A stretch of 64,000 bases of DNA. Origin: an uncultured Barnesiella sp. GTDB taxonomy: Bacteria; Bacteroidota; Bacteroidia; Bacteroidales; Muribaculaceae. The notes beneath the pieces are model-generated. The model saw only the letters and a list, made by a program, of their open reading frames with translations, was not told the origin of the DNA and did no database searches. This document shows positions 1 through 10,050 of this stretch, piece by piece. The DNA lies in the NCBI GenBank assembly GCA_964544595.1, contig CAZJBM010000005.1, forward strand, positions 1,324-65,323, read 5' to 3'. The stretch's first letter is position 1, and each line of letters opens with the position of its first letter. A program made the translations under genes and the position numbers.

Positions 1-771
1 CTCCCGATCATTTTCGAGGAACCGAAGATCCCTTACCGCGAAACCATAACTAAGGCAGCCCGCGCCGATTATCGCCACAAGAAGCAATCGGGCGGCGCAG
101 GCCAGTTTGGTGAAGTTCACTTAATTATCGAGCCTTATACCGAAGGAATGCCCGCACCCGACACCTATAAGTTCGGCAACCAGGAGTTCAAGATGAGCGT
201 CCGCGACACTCAGGAGATACCTCTGGCATGGGGCGGCAAGCTCGTTGTATGCAACTGTATCGTAGGCGGCGCTATCGATGCCCGATTCATCCCCGCTATC
301 GTGAAGGGATTGATGGACCGCATGGAGCAAGGCCCCCTCACAGGCTCTTACGCCCGCGACGTGCGCGTTTGCATTTACGACGGCAAAATGCACCCGGTTG
401 ACTCCAACGAAATCTCATTCCGCCTCGCCGGCCGTAACGCCTTCTCTGAAGCGTTCCGCAACGCCAACCCCAAAGTGCTTGAACCGATCTACGACGTTGA
501 GGTAATGGTGCCCGGCGACGTGATGGGCGACGTGATGAGCGACCTCCAGAGCCGCCGCGCGATCATTATGGGTATGTCGTCGGAGAACGGCTTCGAGAAA
601 CTCGTCGCAAAAGTGCCTCTCAAAGAGATGTCAAGCTACTCGACTGCCCTCAGCTCAATCACCGGCGGACGCTCATCGTTCACAATGAAGTTTGCGGGCT
701 ACGAACTCGTTCCCGGCGACGTTCAGGAGAAACTTCTCAAAGAATACGCCGAAAAGAATCAGGATGAGTAA
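1..771 (+). CDS. fusA: Elongation factor G C-terminal part (domains IV-V), 5'-partial; probably the second Bacteroidales EF-G paralog
   Basis: Frame 1 is open from base 1 (LPIIFEEPKIPYRETITK...HKKQSGGAGQFGEV), with DGKMHPVDSNEISFRLA, VLEPIYDVEV and ITGGRSSFTMKF motifs; not inside an rpsL-rpsG-fusA-tuf operon. Confidence 0.9.
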   Translation, partial: LPIIFEEPKIPYRETITKAARADYRHKKQSGGAGQFGEVHLIIEPYTEGMPAPDTYKFGNQEFKMSVRDTQEIPLAWGGKLVVCNCIVGGAIDARFIPAIVKGLMDRMEQGPLTGSYARDVRVCIYDGKMHPVDSNEISFRLAGRNAFSEAFRNANPKVLEPIYDVEVMVPGDVMGDVMSDLQSRRAIIMGMSSENGFEKLVAKVPLKEMSSYSTALSSITGGRSSFTMKFAGYELVPGDVQEKLLKEYAEKNQDE

Positions 772-877
772 TCTGCATGAACGGGACATGAGCCTATTCA
801 TAGATGAATACTTCACACTGAAAGCCCACATACATTACACACGCATAATCACCTGCGTGTCAACTGTCTGAACTCAA

Positions 878-913
878 TCAATCAGGAGTTCCCGCATGGG
901 AGCTTCTGATTGA
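878..913 (+). terminator. 16-bp hairpin downstream of EF-G, weak U-tract
   Basis: tcaatcaggagttccc-gcat-gggagcttctgattga; both mismatches are G-U pairs on the + strand. Confidence 0.55.
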
Positions 914-943
914 CTCTATAAGTAACTATATCGTTAACCCGCT

Positions 944-1561
944 ATGGCCATATGCAACATATTTGGTATTGACCGTCATCGACTCACTACCGATGGCGAT
1001 GGCGTAACAACTTTAGTGCTACTTCATAAGTGCCCGCTTAATTGCAAGTATTGTATCAATCCGCAATGTCAATTATCGGCCGATATCTTTCCAAGCTATA
1101 ATTCGGCGGAACTTTACGATATTGTAAAAATCGACAACATATATTTCGCAGCCACGGGAGGCGGGATAACATTCGGCGGGGGAGAGCCTGCCATGTATCC
1201 GGGCTTTATTACTGACTTATGGGCACTATGCGGCGACGTATGGAAACTCAATATTGAGACTTCGCTAAATGTTCCCGAAGAAAACATCCGACAGCTACTA
1301 CCTGTTATCAATCATTGGTATATCGACGTGAAAGATATGAACCCTCAAATCTACCGAAATTACACTGGTACCACCAACGACCGCGTGCTTCTCAATCTTG
1401 GGATTCTTAAGGAGGCAAAGGCACAATCTAAAGTTACGATTCGCCTACCGCTAATTCCCGATTTCAACTCCGAGGACGACATTATAAAAAGCAAACTACA
1501 ACTCAAGCAATTAGGATTCGACAACTTTGATATTTTTCAATACATAATACCTTCGATATGA
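944..1561 (+). CDS. Radical SAM protein, PflA / glycyl-radical-activase-like
   Basis: CPLNCKYC (CxxxCxxC), GGGITFGGGEP, IETS, IRLPLIPDFN; stop overlaps the next ATG (ATGA at 1558-1561). Confidence 0.85.
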   Translation: MAICNIFGIDRHRLTTDGDGVTTLVLLHKCPLNCKYCINPQCQLSADIFPSYNSAELYDIVKIDNIYFAATGGGITFGGGEPAMYPGFITDLWALCGDVWKLNIETSLNVPEENIRQLLPVINHWYIDVKDMNPQIYRNYTGTTNDRVLLNLGILKEAKAQSKVTIRLPLIPDFNSEDDIIKSKLQLKQLGFDNFDIFQYIIPSI

Positions 1562-2709
1562 CCAGAGGAAAGCGCACTTGCAAAATACTAAAGGATATAC
1601 GCCGGCAAATAGCTGAAGCAAACGATATACAACTAATCACCTCTGAGTGCACATACAAAGGTGACTGTCTCGGCACATGCCCGCGATGCGAAGCCGAGGT
1701 AGAATATCTTGAAAAGGAATTGGGCAAGCGACGCCGTAATGGCAAACTGGTAGCTTTGGCCGGAATCTCCATCGGCCTCCTCTCAACGAATGCCTTTGCT
1801 CAATCTTGCAATATCAACCCGGAACAGAATAAAGCGAATTTAACTACCGACTCTATAAAAAACGTATCGACCAACGTAGCTCGACAAGAAGTGATTTTTG
1901 AAGACAAGATATTCGGAGCTGACCCCTGTGTGATGCCAACTTTCCCCAATGGGGAGGCTGCACTACAGAAATTTATATCAGAAAACGGCATCTATCCTCC
2001 TGAAGCCGCTGTCGACAGCATTTCAGGACGCGTGGTTGTTCAGTTTGTCATCAAAAAGGATGGCTCAATCGGGGAAATAAAAATAGGTAGAGGTAAGCAT
2101 GATTTACTGAATAGAGAAGCCGTTAAAGTAGTGCGTAAACTACCAAACTTTAATCCCGGAAGAATTCATAGAGTTCCGCAAGACGTATGGTTTACAATGC
2201 CTATAAATTTCGGACTTGGTAATAAGGGGACAATTCATCCTGACTCAACCCTGGTTGCCGAATACTTATCAAGCCCCGAAGGGAAGAAACATATTGAGAG
2301 GAAACAAAATTCAGCAACCGGAAATGTAAGCAATGCGACCAACGAATATCCTGTTGAAAAGCCTAAATACCCAGGGGGAACAGACGCATTGATTAAAGAC
2401 TTAAAAAACAGCATTAAATACCCCGTCAAGGCCCTTAAAGATAAAATTGAGGGAAAGGTTGCAATTGTTTTTCTCGTGCTACTCGACGGCACAATCGATG
2501 ATATAAAAGTAGAGAATGACGCTAATCCCATGCTTGAAGAAGAGGTTGTGAAAGCGATTAAGACTTTAAAGACATTCAAGCCTGCCGAACTTTATGGGAT
2601 TGTCAACGAGTCTCATATAAAACTGTCGGTAAATTTCACAATTAACAAGAAAGCCTCCACCTATTCAAAGAAAGCAGGCATAATTGATATAAAAGTAATA
2701 GAGAATTAG
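1558..2709 (+). CDS. TonB C-terminal domain protein (two TonB-C domains) with N-terminal Cys-rich leader and signal/TM segment
   Basis: PTFPNGEAALQKFI..YPPEA..GRVVVQFVIKKDG and PKYPGG..YPVKA..GKVAIVFLVLLDG repeats; leader C8, C31, C37, C41, C44; KRRR plus hydrophobic stretch ending AFA-Q. Confidence 0.8.
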   Translation: MTRGKRTCKILKDIRRQIAEANDIQLITSECTYKGDCLGTCPRCEAEVEYLEKELGKRRRNGKLVALAGISIGLLSTNAFAQSCNINPEQNKANLTTDSIKNVSTNVARQEVIFEDKIFGADPCVMPTFPNGEAALQKFISENGIYPPEAAVDSISGRVVVQFVIKKDGSIGEIKIGRGKHDLLNREAVKVVRKLPNFNPGRIHRVPQDVWFTMPINFGLGNKGTIHPDSTLVAEYLSSPEGKKHIERKQNSATGNVSNATNEYPVEKPKYPGGTDALIKDLKNSIKYPVKALKDKIEGKVAIVFLVLLDGTIDDIKVENDANPMLEEEVVKAIKTLKTFKPAELYGIVNESHIKLSVNFTINKKASTYSKKAGIIDIKVIEN

Positions 2710-2720
2710 TAAGTATCGAA

Positions 2721-5033
2721 ATGAAAAAGTATATAATCGGATTAATCACTTTATCATCGGCAATATCTGGCTATGCCATTGACGCGCCGCAGAGTCAGTC
2801 CGACAAGCCGCGAATCATCATATCAACCGATATTGGTGGCACCGACCCCGACGATAATCAGTCGATGACTCATCTACTAATGTACAACAACCTCTTCGAC
2901 ATAGAGGGAATCGTTTCGTCGCCTTCTTTTGGCAACGGCAGCAAGGAGGAAATCATACGCATGATTGAGCTTTACGCCAAAGACTACCCCAAGCTTGCCT
3001 CGCGTCAGGAGGGATTTCTCTCTCCCGATTCCCTTATCGCAATCTGCAAGCAGGGTAACAAAACCGCCGCCCCCTTTGCGGGATACTCATTACTGACCGA
3101 AGGGTCGCGACATATATCGGAGTGCGCGCTCAGGGAATCTGACCGACCTCTATGGATACTTGTGTGGGGCACGCTCGACGACCTCGCGCAAGCGCTCCAC
3201 GACACCCCTGAGATAGCTTCGCGCATTCGCGTATATTACATCGGCGGCCCGAATAAGAAGTGGGGGGCCGACAGTTATGCCTATATCGCTAAAAATTTCC
3301 CCAATCTTTTCTTCATCGAGAACAACGCGTCTTATCGCGGCTTCCCATCAAGCCCCAACGCCGAGGGAATTTTCCAAAAAGACTACTACGAGACTTTTAT
3401 GCGTGGCGCGGGAGCTTTAGGCGCGGACTTCAAGAAATACTACGACGGGGTGGTAAAAATGGGGGATTCGCCGTCGCTTTTCTATCTCATGAAAGGAGAT
3501 CACGATAACCCGGAGGCTGACTCATGGGGAGGCAGATTTGAGCGCATCAGCCACTCTCCCCGCCACCAATTCAAAATCTCGGATGGGGCAAAGAATACGG
3601 CAACCACGTATTCGATCGTTGAATTCACTTTCAATGGCCCTTCAGTCAAAATTCCTACTGACTCAGCCTGCGTGACGCTCCATATCGACAAACAGGATTG
3701 GCCGGGCTATTATGCGGGAAAAGGTAAATATATAATCCGCTACAGCCCGAAGGCCCCCGGCAACCTTGAGTACACTATCACTTCACCTTTGAATGGTTTC
3801 AAGACCATCAAAGGTGAGCTTAGGGTCGAAGGCACCTTTCCAGGAGAGAGATCTAAAAACGACTACCGACTGGGCAAAAATTGGTACACCGACGTGAGCG
3901 ACCCCGCAATGGCGTCGGGCAAATGGCAGGGCGCGAAAACTATCGGCGCGCACCGAGAGGAGATTTTAAGCGACTGGGTAGAGCGACTTAACTGGATAAA
4001 GGACGACAGCATGGCCAACGCCGGAAAGAAGTCGATAAGAGTCGCCGACAGCGAGTTTTTCAAGACCGAGGAGGCGCGCCGAATCGGCAATCAGATAATT
4101 GCCTATCAACGCGCCACAGGCGGCTGGCCCAAGAACATCAATATGTCGATACCTTTCTCGGCGACCGAAGCTCAGAGCATTCTCGCCGATAAGGGTAGAA
4201 CAGATGACTCGACTACCGACAACACCGCCACAACCACACAAATATACTATCTCGCCCGGCTTTATAACGCAACAGGCGATGACGTTTACCGTAAGGGGGC
4301 TGAAGACGGGATACGCTTTCTGCTCGCCGGACAATATGATAACGGCGGCTGGCCCCAATTCTGGCCTAATCCCCACGGATACCAGATCCACATCACCTTC
4401 AACGACGACGCTATGACCAACACAATGGCACTGCTCAACCGCGTTTCGCACTCAATGGAGCCCTTCGACACCGACATTATCAGCGACGAGCTGCGACAAT
4501 CATCTAAAACGGCATTTGACAAAGGAGTGGAATGTATTCTAAAATGCCAGATTAAAGTTGACGGGAAGCCGACTGTTTGGTGCCAACAGCACGACAGAGA
4601 CACATACGCCCCTGCACCTGCAAGAGCGTTCGAGTTAGCGTCCTACTGCTCCTCGGAGAGCTCTGCTATCGTTTGGTTGCTGATGGATATACCCGACCCT
4701 TCGCAAGAAATAATCGATGCGATCGATGGCGCGATGAGATGGTTTGAAAAGTATAAGATCGAGGGAATAAGAATTGGATCAGATGGCGAAATCGACGGCA
4801 AGAAGAATCATATAGTGGTCAACGACGAGGCGGCTGAGCCTATATGGGCGCGTTTTTACGACTTGGTTGAGTGTGAGCCTATGTTTTGCGACCGCGACGG
4901 CATACCGCGCAAATCAATGGCAGAGATCGGTCCTGAACGCCGCAACGGATATTCATGGTATTCCTACGGACCGTCGTATCTCTATCCCCGATATAATGAA
5001 TGGAAATCAAAATTGACAACTAAAGCTAAATGA
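2721..5033 (+). CDS. pelA: Secreted fusion: DUF1593 (nucleoside-hydrolase-like) domain + family PL10 pectate lyase
   Basis: Signal peptide; RIIISTDIGGTDPDDNQS (DUF1593); C-half GGWPKN, TTDNTAT, DNGGWPQF, ITFNDDAM, WCQQHD, WARFY (PL10). Confidence 0.8.
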   Translation: MKKYIIGLITLSSAISGYAIDAPQSQSDKPRIIISTDIGGTDPDDNQSMTHLLMYNNLFDIEGIVSSPSFGNGSKEEIIRMIELYAKDYPKLASRQEGFLSPDSLIAICKQGNKTAAPFAGYSLLTEGSRHISECALRESDRPLWILVWGTLDDLAQALHDTPEIASRIRVYYIGGPNKKWGADSYAYIAKNFPNLFFIENNASYRGFPSSPNAEGIFQKDYYETFMRGAGALGADFKKYYDGVVKMGDSPSLFYLMKGDHDNPEADSWGGRFERISHSPRHQFKISDGAKNTATTYSIVEFTFNGPSVKIPTDSACVTLHIDKQDWPGYYAGKGKYIIRYSPKAPGNLEYTITSPLNGFKTIKGELRVEGTFPGERSKNDYRLGKNWYTDVSDPAMASGKWQGAKTIGAHREEILSDWVERLNWIKDDSMANAGKKSIRVADSEFFKTEEARRIGNQIIAYQRATGGWPKNINMSIPFSATEAQSILADKGRTDDSTTDNTATTTQIYYLARLYNATGDDVYRKGAEDGIRFLLAGQYDNGGWPQFWPNPHGYQIHITFNDDAMTNTMALLNRVSHSMEPFDTDIISDELRQSSKTAFDKGVECILKCQIKVDGKPTVWCQQHDRDTYAPAPARAFELASYCSSESSAIVWLLMDIPDPSQEIIDAIDGAMRWFEKYKIEGIRIGSDGEIDGKKNHIVVNDEAAEPIWARFYDLVECEPMFCDRDGIPRKSMAEIGPERRNGYSWYSYGPSYLYPRYNEWKSKLTTKAK

Positions 5034-7077: not shown

Positions 7078-7695
7078 ATGCTTATCATCGGTATAGCAGG
7101 TGGCACCGGCTCGGGTAAAACCACCGTAGTAAACAAGATAATCGACAGCTTTCCGGCAGGCGAAGTAGCCGTATTGCCGCAGGATAACTACTATAAGGAC
7201 TCAAGCCACGTTCCGGTGGAGGAAAGAAGCAAAATAAACTTTGACGAGCCGGCGGCAATCGAATGGTCGCTCCTGGTTGAACATCTTATGCAGCTCAAAG
7301 AGGGCAAGAGCATCGAGATGCCCACATACTCTTATCTTACCTGCACGCGCGGGCCTGAGACAATAAGGGTAGAGCCTCGCGACGTGGTTATTGTCGAAGG
7401 CATCCTCGTGCTGACCGACCCCACGCTGCGAAAGCTTATGGATGTGAAATGTTTTGTGGATGCAGAGGCCGACGAGCGACTTATCCGCGTGATCTCGCGC
7501 GACTGCGTTGAGCGCGGGCGCACGCCCAAAATGGTGATCGACCGCTATCAGGAAATCCTCAAACCGATGCATTGCATGTATATTGAACCGACCAAGCGTT
7601 TCGCCGACCTGATAATTCCGCAAGGCGGCACTAACACTGTAGCGATAGGGCTTTTGACCGATTATATCGACGGACGCCTCAAACGATCTAAATAA
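7078..7695 (+). CDS. udk: Uridine kinase
   Basis: IGIAGGTGSGKTT, DNYYKD, NFDEP, VIVEGIL, RDCVERGR. Confidence 0.95.
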   Translation: MLIIGIAGGTGSGKTTVVNKIIDSFPAGEVAVLPQDNYYKDSSHVPVEERSKINFDEPAAIEWSLLVEHLMQLKEGKSIEMPTYSYLTCTRGPETIRVEPRDVVIVEGILVLTDPTLRKLMDVKCFVDAEADERLIRVISRDCVERGRTPKMVIDRYQEILKPMHCMYIEPTKRFADLIIPQGGTNTVAIGLLTDYIDGRLKRSK

Positions 7696-7700
7696 ACGTC

Positions 7701-8630
7701 ATGGCACTTTCATTCCCATTCAAGAACAGAGATAAGGAGGACGAGGACATCCCCAAAATAAAATTTGAGGAGGAGGTGCTTGCCCCCTACGGAGATATGC
7801 CCCCGGCCGATAGACCTCTCGAAGACGCATTAGCAGTAGCGGCAGATGCAATCGAGGCAGTTGAGAACGTGGAGGCTGAAAAGCCGGCCAAGATGGTGCT
7901 TCGCACCGATAACCTCGTGAAACGATATGGCAACCGCACGGTGGTAAATCATGTTTCAATCAACGTCACGCAAGGGGAGATCGTCGGCCTTTTAGGCCCC
8001 AACGGAGCCGGGAAAACCACCACATTCTACATGACAACCGGATTGGTGCAGCCCAATGAGGGACAGATTTTCCTCAACGACCTAAATATCACCAATTACC
8101 CCGTATATAAACGCGCGCAAAACGGCATAGGCTATCTCGCGCAAGAGCCTTCGGTGTTCCGAAAAATGTCGGTAGAGGATAATATTCGCTCGGTGCTTCA
8201 GATGACGAAGCTCTCTAAGGCAGAGCAAAAAGATAAACTTGAAGAACTTATCAAGGATTTCAATCTCGCCAAAGTACGCAAAAACCTCGGCGACCAGCTA
8301 TCGGGTGGTGAACGGCGCCGTACGGAGATAGCCCGCTGCTTGGCCATCAGCCCTCACTTTATTATGCTCGACGAGCCTTTCGCCGGAGTTGACCCTATAG
8401 CTGTGGAGGAGATTCAAAATGTCGTTTACAGTCTTAAGAAGCGTAATATCGGTATTCTCATTACCGACCACAACGCTCCTGAAACCCTTTCGATCACCGA
8501 CCGCGCTTACCTACTGACCGAGGGACAAATTCTCTTTCAGGGTACATCGGAAGAGCTTGCCGAAAACCCAATTGTAAGGGAGAAATATCTCGGACGAAAC
8601 TTCCAATTCCATCGCAAACATTTCGACTAA
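7701..8630 (+). CDS. lptB: LPS export ABC ATPase with acidic N-terminal extension
   Basis: GLLGPNGAGKTT, IGYLAQEPSVF, LSGGERRRTEIAR, GILITDHN. Confidence 0.9.
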   Translation: MALSFPFKNRDKEDEDIPKIKFEEEVLAPYGDMPPADRPLEDALAVAADAIEAVENVEAEKPAKMVLRTDNLVKRYGNRTVVNHVSINVTQGEIVGLLGPNGAGKTTTFYMTTGLVQPNEGQIFLNDLNITNYPVYKRAQNGIGYLAQEPSVFRKMSVEDNIRSVLQMTKLSKAEQKDKLEELIKDFNLAKVRKNLGDQLSGGERRRTEIARCLAISPHFIMLDEPFAGVDPIAVEEIQNVVYSLKKRNIGILITDHNAPETLSITDRAYLLTEGQILFQGTSEELAENPIVREKYLGRNFQFHRKHFD

Positions 8631-8651
8631 TTGGTCATAACCCACATACAT

Positions 8652-8691
8652 TAAGAAACGGCTGAAATTCAATCTTTTCAGCCGTTTCTTA
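8652..8691. terminator. Bidirectional intrinsic terminator between convergent lptB and GH28
   Basis: Perfect 16-bp inverted repeat taagaaacggctgaaa / tttcagccgtttctta. Confidence 0.8.
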
Positions 8692-8715
8692 TATGATAGA
8701 AATGATTAGCGGGTT

Positions 8716-10050
8716 TTATTTCTTGGTAACCGTAACGTTTTCCACCTTGCAGTTAGCTATGTTTGAAGTGTCGAATTCTCCTGTCGTGTCGAGAGCTGTG
8801 ACATTTTCAAATGTGAAGTTCTCAAGGTCGAAGTAATTGTCTTTAGCCTCGCGGTAGAAGTCGCGCCAGCAGTCGAGGTCGGCGTTGCGGAAAGTGATGT
8901 TTGCCACTTTGGAGCGGGGCATCGGGTCGCGATCGCCTTTGTCGTAGAACTGTGTCCACTTCTGCACCTCAACGCCATTTTTCACCTTACCTTTGGCGCC
9001 GTCAACGAGCACGTACATATATTTTTGGGGTGTGTCGGGGCGCATTTTGAAAAGCACCACGTGTGACGTTCCGTCATACTCACAGTTACGTAGTATCACG
9101 TTTTCCGCATCCCATGCCTCCGAGCCGAAGGTCACGCCGGCATTTGTTTTGCCAAATTTGCAATCCTCTACGAGAATACGGCGGCAGGGGCCGTTGCCGG
9201 GAATGGTGTCGACCCATGTGCCTTTACCACCTTTTACGCAAACCGCATCGTCGTTGACATTCATGTAGCAGCCTTTGACGAGCACGTCGGAACACACATC
9301 GAGATCGATAGCATCGGTTGAGGGGCCTTTGGGATAGCCGTCGGTTGGAGCGTAAATGAAGTTGTCGAGATATTTCACTCGATTGCAGTTATAAAGGTGG
9401 TTGGTCCAGAAGCCTGAGAATATTAGTTTCACCCCGCTAACGGTCACGTCGTCGGAATCGGCGATGTAGACAAGGCGAGGGCGAAGCGCTTCGAGATTGG
9501 TGCACTTCGGATTAACCTTGCGACGCAACCAAAATTCGTCGTAGAAGCGCAGACCGTTGCCGTCGATAGTGCCCGGGCCTGAAATAGTGAAGCCGTCGCA
9601 GTCGATAGCGTTAACGAGAGCGGCGAAATATTTTATCGTCTGGCCTTCGAGGCGAGTGTCGATAATCTCATAGTTGGTAATCGCATCTGAGCCTTTGAGT
9701 TTTCCCCCCTCGGCGATGTTGAGATGGGTTCCGGGCTTGAAGAAAAGCGAGCCTGAAAGGAATGTACCCTCAGGCACTACTATAACACCGCCGCCATTGG
9801 CAGCAGCCTTGTCAATCACAGCCTGGATGGCTTCTGTCTGAATAAGGGTTGAGTCATTGGCTGTAACTCCGTAATCGGTTATGACGTATTTCGGGCCCAA
9901 CTCGTCGACATTGACAGGAGCCGCATTGTAAAACCATTCGTCGATAACTGTGCCATCGGGCCACGTGGGCGCAACTTTAGGTGCTTTCTTTTTAGCAGCT
10001 ACGGCAAGTCCGGGAATAACCAAAGCAAGAAGCAGATACTTAAATTTCAT
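8716..10050 (-). CDS. Glycoside hydrolase family 28 (polygalacturonase-like), secreted
   Basis: Signal peptide; STDAID, DDAVCVK catalytic motifs; FKMRPD; beta-helix character. Confidence 0.88.
   Translation of the reverse strand: MKFKYLLLALVIPGLAVAAKKKAPKVAPTWPDGTVIDEWFYNAAPVNVDELGPKYVITDYGVTANDSTLIQTEAIQAVIDKAAANGGGVIVVPEGTFLSGSLFFKPGTHLNIAEGGKLKGSDAITNYEIIDTRLEGQTIKYFAALVNAIDCDGFTISGPGTIDGNGLRFYDEFWLRRKVNPKCTNLEALRPRLVYIADSDDVTVSGVKLIFSGFWTNHLYNCNRVKYLDNFIYAPTDGYPKGPSTDAIDLDVCSDVLVKGCYMNVNDDAVCVKGGKGTWVDTIPGNGPCRRILVEDCKFGKTNAGVTFGSEAWDAENVILRNCEYDGTSHVVLFKMRPDTPQKYMYVLVDGAKGKVKNGVEVQKWTQFYDKGDRDPMPRSKVANITFRNADLDCWRDFYREAKDNYFDLENFTFENVTALDTTGEFDTSNIANCKVENVTVTKK

Follow-up and report, generated by a model that had tools for sequence, protein, structure and literature searches.

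A cysteine-rich N-terminal leader domain paired with a small radical-SAM enzyme gene

A five-cysteine domain of about 60 residues, placed in front of a predicted signal peptide, was identified at the N terminus of a TonB-like protein encoded in a 64,000-nucleotide stretch of DNA from an uncultured Barnesiella sp. (GCA_964544595.1, contig CAZJBM010000005.1, positions 1,324 to 65,323; hereafter, the window). A profile search with the domain recovered a family of 2,860 clusters at 50% identity. The same small radical-SAM enzyme was encoded beside the domain in 67 of 79 Bacteroidales loci and in 72 of 80 loci of a second scan, mostly Clostridia. This pairing points to an undescribed system for processing proteins before export.

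The observation made in the preliminary description, namely, that a five-Cys leader with its own CxxxCxxC precedes a cleavable-looking signal peptide, was confirmed. Translation of the ORF at 1558..2709 (+; 383 aa) gives MTRGKRTC8...EC31TYKGDC37LGTC41PRC44EAEVEYLEKELGKRRRNGK-LVALAGISIGLLSTNAFA|QSC, and every residue number given earlier is correct (A81 ends at nt 1800, and Q82 is 1801-1803). The five Cys codons lie within 1579..1689 (+), at 1579-1581 (C8), 1648-1650 (C31), 1666-1668 (C37), 1678-1680 (C41), and 1687-1689 (C44). A lack of Cys conservation among homologs had been named in advance as a reason to abandon the observation; instead, the pattern C-x20-24-C-x5-C-x3-C-x2-C was present in 118 of 120 homologs, with the other two called from an internal Met, and all five Cys were invariant in alignments of 10, 51, 142, and 69 sequences. 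A true start further downstream, a second reason named beforehand, was also examined. The start at 1558 was supported in three ways: all homologs start with M-x(1-3)-G-K a few residues before the first Cys, independent gene calls on four other contigs use the same start, and the ATG overlaps the stop codon of the upstream gene (ATGA). A possible in-frame internal start, the TTG codon of L55 at 1720..1722 (+), is followed by GKRRRNGK and the hydrophobic region and would give a canonical 27-aa signal peptide, with the preceding 54 codons being a separate or only occasionally fused element. Start sites were not mapped, and 200 of 244 homologs have some in-frame ATG, GTG, or TTG between the last Cys and the hydrophobic region. 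However, the L55 codon is TTG in only 69 of 244 homologs, and 44 of 244 have no possible start there. The domain is always in frame with, and contiguous to, the signal peptide in hundreds of genes, and it has no stop of its own except in a few short, seemingly truncated copies (80 and 98 aa). We therefore regard predominant internal initiation as very unlikely.

The conserved Cys5 domain (1558..1743 [+], aa 1 to 62) was modeled by AF2 (pLDDT, about 80) as a two-helix hairpin, with a basic helix at aa 3 to 21 (containing C8), a 20-residue loop at aa 22 to 41 (C31, G35, C37, G39, and C41), and an acidic helix from aa 42 to 62 (P42 and C44). Cys-Cys distances in the model were not measured. In addition to the five Cys, G35, G39, T40, and P42 were invariant. 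The domain was located at residues 1 to 80 in nearly all of the 150 profile matches listed. Pfam and NCBIfam scans of aa 1 to 81 gave only Zn_Ribbon_YjdM at an E value of 0.033, far below its cutoff. A PDB sequence profile search gave nothing below an E value of 0.3, and Foldseek searches of two AF2 models against PDB gave nothing below an E value of 1, the weak hits being generic helix hairpins such as Tim9/Tim10. PADLOC and PHROGs returned nothing for the domain, and no second copy of it was found in the window. The earlier interpretation of the domain was only partly supported. Its comparison of the CxxxCxxC spacing with a radical-SAM cluster does not make the domain a radical-SAM enzyme: only the spacing fits, Arg rather than an aromatic residue precedes C44, there are no GGE motif, no barrel, and no Radical_SAM Pfam hit for aa 1 to 81, and the real cluster motif is in the upstream gene. 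The suggested resemblance to zinc anti-sigma (ZAS) factors was effectively refuted, although a cytoplasmic C-x3-C-x2-C is followed by a membrane segment. No zf-HC2 or other anti-sigma Pfam hit was obtained at an E value of ≤0.1, there is no H-x3-C-x2-C (the motif has no His, and two further Cys are invariant), and a cleavage site follows the membrane segment. The neighboring genes encode an EF-G-like protein, the radical-SAM enzyme, and a pectate lyase, and no sigma factor gene was found beside the ORF or as a conserved neighbor in 159 loci.

Comparison of homologs indicated that the hydrophobic stretch behaves as a cleavable Sec-type signal peptide (1726..1800 [+]), as the preliminary description had proposed. 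It comprises an n-region at K57-K63 (1726-1746; KRRRNGK), an h-region at L64-L75 (1747-1782; LVALAGISIGLL), and a c-region at S76-A81 (1783-1800; STNAFA), with a predicted SPase I cut after A81 and Q82 at +1. Of 133 homologs, 80 had a lipobox ([LVI][ASTVI][GAS]C) whose Cys lies 35 to 36 residues after the last Cys of the domain, and of the 51 without one, 42 had small-x-small|Q, in agreement with the Bacteroidetes rule of Gln at +1 (PMC5837995). The window protein itself has AFA|Q. Actual cleavage and pyroglutamate formation were not measured, and no signal peptide predictor was applied. Unlike a standard signal peptide, this one is not at the extreme N terminus but is preceded by a conserved domain of about 56 aa. 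The comparison therefore places the Cys-rich domain on the cytoplasmic side, removed from the exported part, although a folded domain ahead of a signal peptide might instead make it an uncleaved signal anchor. A Tat signal was rejected because RR is not conserved (relatives have RARS or KRQR).

The predicted mature N terminus and linker (1801..1992 [+], aa 82 to 145) contain TDSI, which matches the Bacteroidetes O-glycosylation sequon D-[ST]-[AILVMT], and KIFGADP, a degenerate copy of a Gly-acidic linker motif of the family. The linker is followed by two TonB_C domains, at 1993..2217 (+; aa 146 to 220; Pfam PF03544, 2.5e-28, two stretches) and 2359..2607 (+; about aa 268 to 350). The latter corresponds to a second Pfam/NCBIfam stretch (aa 253 to 349 in several models) and a PHROG hit at aa 283 to 350. 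Relatives are publicly annotated as "energy transducer TonB," and double TonB_C proteins are known in Bacteroides (bioRxiv 10.1101/2023.07.07.548152). The protein could thus be an ordinary TonB with an uncleaved anchor, a structural zinc finger, and a radical-SAM neighbor that is functionally unrelated or merely coregulated. We consider this unlikely. The 18-residue stretch has no S-x3-H motif of the ExbBD-interacting anchor and is followed by a cleavage site, there is no Pro-rich spacer, no exbBD genes are adjacent, and NCBIfam TonB equivalogs scored 16 to 36 bits against cutoffs of 265 to 448. In addition, many relatives are from monoderm Clostridia or carry non-TonB passengers, and the linkage to the enzyme survives a gene order inversion across phyla.

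The upstream gene, which was not mentioned in the preliminary description, lies at 944..1561 (+) and encodes a 205-aa PFL-activase-like radical-SAM enzyme with C30-x3-C34-x2-C37, a GGGEP motif, and a DGDGVTT loop. Pfam scans detected Radical_SAM (PF04055; 7e-16) and Fer4_12. The curated cutoffs for glycyl-radical-enzyme activases were not reached (TIGR02494, matched in two stretches, 137 bits against 174; TIGR02493, 82.5 bits against 232), and the best PDB sequence match was PflA (8fo0/3c8f; E value, 3e-12). PADLOC and PHROGs gave only generic radical-SAM similarity (viperin, QueE, and NrdG). The enzymes are 202 to 219 aa long and have only the PFL-AE core (CxxxCxxC, GGGEP, and DG.G loop), without an RRE, SPASM, or ferredoxin insert, and in 68 family members only the three cluster Cys are conserved as a set. 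The possibility that the enzyme activates a nearby glycyl-radical enzyme was rejected, because no RVxG[YFW] signature was found in a six-frame translation of the window and no such enzyme was a conserved neighbor in the 159 loci. The enzyme thus needs another substrate and another docking device.

The stop codon of the enzyme gene overlaps the start of the Cys-rich ORF (ATGA, 1558..1561 [+]), from which translational coupling is inferred. The same 4-nt overlap was present on other contigs, and an overlap also occurs in Clostridia, where the gene order is reversed. The radical-SAM gene was on the same strand in 67 of the 79 Bacteroidales loci (64 upstream; commonest gap between the matched segments, 15 nt) and in 72 of the 80 loci of the second scan, in 61 of which it lies downstream. 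Linkage that survives a change of gene order argues for function. Several loci without the gene are on cut-off contigs, but about 10% of loci with enough flanking sequence showed no adjacent enzyme; genome-wide profiles of the two families were not compared. The domain is more conserved than the enzyme: Bacteroidales and Clostridia domains are 59 to 78% identical to that of the window, against 36 to 61% for the enzyme in the loci of the second scan. In 37 of 79 loci, one enzyme gene is followed by 2 to 6 tandem genes that share the N-domain but carry different passengers (TonB_C in 47, CarbopepD_reg_2 in 23, and no Pfam hit in most of the rest of 142). This is the pattern of one maturase with many leader-tagged substrates, and, together with the conserved neighbor, it lends real support to the earlier suggestion of a RiPP-like precursor. 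No protease, transporter, regulator, or other third gene was conserved in the 159 loci, which fits the use of housekeeping Sec and signal peptidase.

On the basis of these results, we propose, with moderate confidence, that the first 62 residues form a cytoplasmic, probably metal-binding hairpin that is the dedicated partner or recognition domain for the enzyme. In this model, the enzyme, which has no peptide recognition domain of its own, would dock on the hairpin and perform a radical modification of unknown nature, either on the hairpin itself or on the adjacent linker of the passenger. The passenger would then be exported by Sec, and signal peptidase (SPase I at AFA|Q in this protein, and Lsp at a lipobox in most relatives) would remove hairpin and signal peptide in one cut, thereby acting as the leader protease. 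The mature product here would be a soluble periplasmic protein with two TonB_C domains rather than an inner membrane energy transducer. Our comparisons establish the conservation of the domain, the signal peptide features, and the linkage to the enzyme, whereas physical docking, metal binding, the timing relative to export, and the chemistry are inferred. There is no direct evidence that the enzyme touches this protein, the modified residue is unknown, no modification was assayed, and the complex was not modeled. Passenger domains such as TonB_C function without modification elsewhere. A candidate target is the Gly-acidic linker motif (G-[DE]-hydrophobic or G-x-hydrophobic-P), which was found in 206 of 235 nonredundant lipobox-type passengers, against 78 ± 6 in shuffles, and is shared across phyla. 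It is not universal, however, given the degenerate copy in the window protein and its absence from most SPase-I/CarboxypepD_reg-type members. Five invariant Cys are also more than a mere docking tag would need, which favors the domain itself being the substrate or cofactor carrier.

A possible but less favored alternative, close to the membrane-tethered peptide envisaged in the preliminary description, is that the domain plus signal peptide is itself the product. After cleavage, a radical-SAM-modified, Cys-rich peptide of about 80 aa would stay tethered to the cytoplasmic face of the membrane, or might be released by a site-2 protease, as enterococcal pheromones derive from lipoprotein signal peptides; the passenger would be incidental. 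Consistent with this view, the domain is the only universally conserved part, its conservation across phyla is very high, and passengers are unrelated. The loop Y33-K-G35-D-C37 resembles the Gly-acidic motif and the hydrophobic-x-Gly context of glycyl-radical sites, although this is a resemblance only. PFL-AE and NrdG act on folded domains, and NrdD has a Zn(Cys)4 site beside its radical glycine. However, this view does not make clear why 2 to 6 near-identical copies would each be fused to a different large exported protein, no conserved site-2 protease or receptor lies nearby, and signal peptide remnants are normally degraded. A redox, oxygen, or iron gate, which corresponds to the export-coupled redox sensor suggested earlier, seems unlikely. 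In this reading, the Cys cluster would bind an Fe-S center whose state controls whether the preprotein is exported or degraded, and the radical-SAM protein would be a partner or electron relay rather than a modifying enzyme. C-x5-C-x3-C-P-x-C, with a Cys-Pro as in ferredoxin CP motifs, is compatible with Fe-S ligation, and the family was found almost only in genomes and metagenome-assembled genomes (MAGs) from gut and rumen samples. Because the enzyme lacks the ferredoxin insert of its closest NCBIfam relatives, an in-trans cluster domain is conceivable. Nevertheless, CPxC knuckles fit Zn equally well, neither metal binding nor redox sensing was examined, a sensor would not need a full SAM-binding radical enzyme with intact GGGEP and cluster motifs, and tandem arrays are not explained.

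Among known systems, RiPP systems with long, protein-like leaders (NHLP/Nif11-type precursors) similarly combine a conserved N-terminal region of 60 to 80 aa, hypervariable C-terminal parts, several tandem precursor genes per modifying enzyme, and leader removal on export. Here, the leader is a Cys5, probably metal-binding hairpin, its removal would be by general signal peptidase after Sec export rather than by a GG-specific PCAT, passengers are often whole folded proteins of 200 to 450 aa, and the enzyme is a minimal PFL-AE-like protein without an RRE or SPASM domain. Glycyl-radical-enzyme activases (PflA-PflB/GrcA and NrdG-NrdD) are the closest characterized relatives of the enzyme by sequence and are likewise small, single-cluster enzymes recognizing a protein rather than a small molecule, but the partner here is an exported or lipoprotein precursor without a glycyl-radical signature. 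SCIFF/ranthipeptide and sactipeptide systems of anaerobes also encode a highly conserved Cys-rich segment beside a radical-SAM enzyme. Those maturases have SPASM auxiliary clusters, their Cys-rich part is the C-terminal core rather than a domain ahead of a signal peptide, and no sequence similarity was detected by NCBIfam. Extended signal peptides (ESPR of autotransporters/TPS proteins) and enterococcal pheromones share a conserved N-terminal extension before an otherwise normal signal peptide and a remnant that could have its own function. However, ESPR is about 25 aa long, with no Cys cluster or dedicated enzyme, and the pheromones are 7- to 8-aa fragments of ordinary signal peptides.

If the pairing is functional, it defines a large family, found almost entirely in Bacteroidales, Clostridia, and a few Chloroflexota MAGs, that would link radical-SAM chemistry to Sec and lipoprotein export. 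We found no description of this connection, domain, or pairing in literature searches or in a preprint on B. thetaiotaomicron TonB homologs. It would also provide a new substrate class for the smallest PFL-activase-like enzymes and correct a widespread annotation, as these "energy transducer TonB" proteins probably lose their membrane segment and so cannot work as TonB. More speculatively, and with less support than the model above, the module may represent an unrecognized maturation pathway of strict anaerobes, in which a folded metal-cluster leader domain placed ahead of a Sec or lipoprotein signal peptide recruits a minimal glycyl-radical-activase-like enzyme to perform radical chemistry on secretory preproteins before export, possibly at Gly-acidic motifs, marking whole families of cell surface lipoproteins and TonB_C proteins in gut Bacteroidales and Clostridia. 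Cultured species that carry the module, and thus offer a tractable test system, include Bacteroides xylanisolvens, B. cellulosilyticus, B. faecis, B. caccae, and Phocaeicola plebeius.

No RNA or DNA runs could be listed for the window itself, and no Bacteroidetes -7 promoter motif (TAnnTTTG) was found between 771 and 944, upstream of the enzyme gene. The locus lies on RNA-seq-derived contigs in four studies of a cultured Bacteroides, which is weak evidence in favor of the proposed model; these are assembled contigs that could include DNA. An antisense ORF cluster seen in 45 loci is just the reverse strand of the conserved N-domain.

The ORF at 1558..2709 (+) encodes a 383-aa protein whose N-terminus reads MTRGKRTC8-KILKDIRRQIAEANDIQLITSEC31-TYKGDC37-LGTC41-PRC44, followed by EAEVEYLEKELGKRRRNGK and LVALAGISIGLLSTNAFA and then, beyond the predicted cleavage point, by QSC. 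The residue positions in the preliminary description were all correct, A81 ends at nucleotide 1800, and the observation that a five-Cys leader precedes a signal peptide-like stretch was confirmed. Pfam and NCBIfam searches recognized only two TonB_C domains further downstream (aa 146 to 220 and about 268 to 350) and found nothing significant in the first 81 residues.

The Cys-rich part belongs to a real and very large domain family. A search with aa 1 to 90 returned 144 proteins at 58 to 78% identity, from Prevotella, Bacteroidales, and Clostridia assemblies. Lack of conservation of the cysteines in homologs had been put forward beforehand as grounds for rejecting the observation; however, the five-Cys pattern was present in 118 of the 120 proteins listed, and the other two were called from an internal Met. 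In alignments of 10, 51, 142, and 69 sequences, C8, C31, C37, C41, and C44 were invariant. G39, T40, and P42 were also kept in all four alignments, and G4, K5, and G35 were invariant in the three alignments that end before the signal peptide or shortly after it. A profile search of 1.84 billion representatives found 2,860 clusters at an E value of ≤1e-3 and 2,291 at ≤1e-10. In the 150 clusters listed, the domain lies at residues 1 to 80 in nearly all, offset by at most about 20 residues. Two scans of one genome per species yielded at least 588 and at least 575 confirmed stretches. The taxa include Bacteroidales (Bacteroides xylanisolvens, B. cellulosilyticus, B. faecis, B. stercorirosoris, Palleniella, Muribaculaceae, and Prevotella), Clostridia (Lachnospiraceae, Oscillospiraceae, Acutalibacteraceae, and Ruminococcus), and a few Chloroflexota metagenome-assembled genomes. 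Most of the samples named in the records are from gut or rumen, and the public names of the proteins are only "energy transducer TonB" or "hypothetical protein."

AlphaFold2 models of the N-domain predict a basic helix (aa 3 to 21, carrying C8), a 20-residue loop holding C31, G35, C37, G39, and C41, and an acidic helix that starts from P42/C44 and runs toward the membrane segment, with a pLDDT of about 80. Neither of the two models had a significant Foldseek match in PDB, and a sequence profile search of PDB also found nothing. The C41-P-x-C44 sequence at a helix start looks like a rubredoxin or zinc-ribbon knuckle, and Cys-Pro also occurs in ferredoxins. Metal binding is therefore plausible, but the metal is undetermined, Cys-Cys distances were not read from the model, and neither metal binding nor the redox sensor role suggested in the preliminary description was put to a test. 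The readings that the domain carries a radical-SAM cluster of its own, or that it is related to ZAS proteins, were not supported.

Comparison among homologs indicated that the hydrophobic stretch is a signal peptide. Of 133 distinct family ORFs taken from genome loci, 80 have a lipobox at the end of the stretch, with its Cys at a nearly fixed distance of 35 to 36 residues after the last N-domain Cys. Of the 51 ORFs without a lipobox, 42 have small-x-small followed by Gln, which is the Bacteroidetes Q-rule for SPase I substrates (PMC5837995). Clostridial members nearly all have a lipobox. The same position thus carries one or the other cleavage signal in two phyla, which is strong comparative evidence for cleavage and evidence against an uncleaved TonB-type anchor. 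For the protein encoded in the window, the predicted cut lies between AFA and Q82. The linker of this protein contains TDSI (aa 96 to 99; 1843..1854), which fits the Bacteroidetes general O-glycosylation sequon D-[ST]-[AILVMT] and is consistent with periplasmic exposure. The linkers of Bacteroidales relatives are likewise rich in this sequon, which suggests that the exported linkers are glycosylated. A start codon lying further downstream was another possibility raised in advance against the observation. An in-frame TTG at L55 could indeed give an ordinary 27-aa signal peptide; however, that codon is TTG in only 69 of 244 homologs.

The gene immediately upstream (944..1561), which the preliminary description did not mention, encodes a 205-aa radical-SAM protein (Pfam Radical_SAM, 7e-16), and its stop codon overlaps the start of the Cys-rich ORF (ATGA). 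Its best NCBIfam matches are glycyl-radical-enzyme activases, all of which score below their cutoffs (137 against 174 for TIGR02494 and 82.5 against 232 for PflA TIGR02493), and its best solved relative is Escherichia coli PflA (E value of 3e-12). Across 68 family members, the motifs RHRL..DG.GVTTL, C..L.C..CLN, T.GG.TFGGGEP, and DIKD..IY are conserved, whereas no second set of cluster Cys, no SPASM or RRE domain, and no ferredoxin insert is present. A search with this protein gave 7,791 hits at an E value of ≤1e-5; among those listed, the few that carry a name are called only "radical SAM protein" or "pyruvate formate lyase activating enzyme." No glycyl-radical signature occurs anywhere in the window.

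The pairing of the two genes is conserved. Of 79 Bacteroidales loci, 67 carry the enzyme on the same strand and 64 carry it upstream, the commonest gap between the matched segments being 15 nt; 5 of the 12 loci without it lack enough upstream sequence. Of 80 loci ranked by a clostridial query, 72 carry the enzyme, which in 61 lies directly downstream of the Cys-rich gene, and several of the 8 exceptions are cut-off contigs. In 37 of the 79 Bacteroidales loci, one enzyme is followed by two to six tandem genes that all start with the N-domain. Some tandem copies are very short (80 to 102 aa) and end within or soon after the signal peptide (4767..5009 in locus L079, 4919..5215 in locus L010, locus L070, and family members P0076 and P0077); these look like decaying paralogs in the arrays. 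The passengers of the N-domain differ. Among 142 representatives, 47 have TonB_C, 23 have CarbopepD_reg_2, and most of the rest have no Pfam domain. Longer clostridial passengers (members P0135, P0152, P0164, P0169, P0178, P0221 to P0227, P0240, and P0251) share, once or twice, a small domain of about 70 aa (...E(I/V)xxxWG...Y...I.V.YDE...V..I.I) that is not recognized by Pfam and that by eye resembles BamE/SmpA-like lipoprotein domains. Clustering of all ORFs in the 159 loci revealed only the enzyme and the N-domain protein as conserved components, the third cluster being the reverse strand of the N-domain.

A short Gly-acidic motif provided a candidate target for the enzyme. In the first 60 residues of the mature part of 235 nonredundant lipobox-type members, G-[DE]-hydrophobic or G-x-hydrophobic-P occurs in 206, whereas composition-preserving shuffles give 78 ± 6. 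Because the sequences are related, this statistic overstates their independence, but the sharing of the motif (L/M-x-G-D/E-V/I-P type) between Clostridia and Bacteroidales, phyla whose tails do not otherwise align, is still worthy of note. In clostridial members, it is repeated many times in the acidic tails, often at the very C-terminus (...LMGEPxx). The motif recurs in the linkers of family members. Its function is unknown, and the protein encoded in the window has only a degenerate copy (KIFGADP). The invariant loop Y-K-G35-D-C37 of the N-domain resembles the same motif. Whether either is the site of the enzyme is a matter of inference.

The best-supported reading of these data is a two-gene module, in which the Cys5 hairpin is the cytoplasmic partner or recognition domain for a minimal PFL-activase-like radical-SAM enzyme and is fused in front of a real signal peptide, so that general signal peptidase removes it on export. 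The conservation of the domain, the signal peptide features, and the linkage to the enzyme were demonstrated by the analysis, whereas physical docking, metal binding, timing, and chemistry are inferences, and we regard this general model as about as likely as not. The modified site may be in the passenger linker (leader guided, as with NHLP/Nif11 leaders) or in the hairpin itself. The interpretation in the preliminary description was supported only in part: a cytoplasmic domain, a cleavable signal peptide, and a RiPP-like precursor are backed by the comparative data. A radical-SAM enzyme with a cognate leader-tagged substrate is a known arrangement. However, no Pfam, NCBIfam, PADLOC, or PHROG model, no solved structure, and no paper found in our literature searches describes the domain or its pairing, and a folded Cys-cluster leader ahead of a Sec or lipoprotein signal peptide, served by a minimal activase-like enzyme, appears to be new.

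No sequencing runs were listed for the window, but for the locus of B. xylanisolvens XB1A (L016), RNA-seq-derived contigs of 6 to 9 kb from four studies span the enzyme gene and the Cys-rich gene. These are assembled contigs and could include DNA, and they therefore provide only weak support for transcription. Between the EF-G-like gene (148..771, +) and the radical-SAM gene, an imperfect inverted repeat (aatcaatcaggagttcc ... ggagcttctgattga) at 868..925 may be a terminator or regulatory hairpin, and no Bacteroidetes -7 promoter motif was found between 771 and 944. The window starts inside the EF-G-like gene, which on a longer contig (L168, 2584..4740) is a full EF-G-family GTPase of 718 aa. 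The ORF at 2721..5033 (+), which starts 12 nt after the Cys-rich ORF, encodes a 770-aa signal peptide-bearing protein that fuses an Sde182 nucleoside-hydrolase-like domain, DUF5060, and a pectate lyase domain. The same neighbor follows on four other contigs and may be cotranscribed, but it is not conserved in the loci of other species. In one Prevotella-type contig (L006, 333..1457 and 7389..9038), the module lies near a phage-type integrase and a DnaB helicase, and a second N-domain gene (397 aa, TonB_C plus CarboxypepD_reg) lies 1.2 kb downstream. Together with the high cross-phylum identity, this hints that the module moves horizontally.
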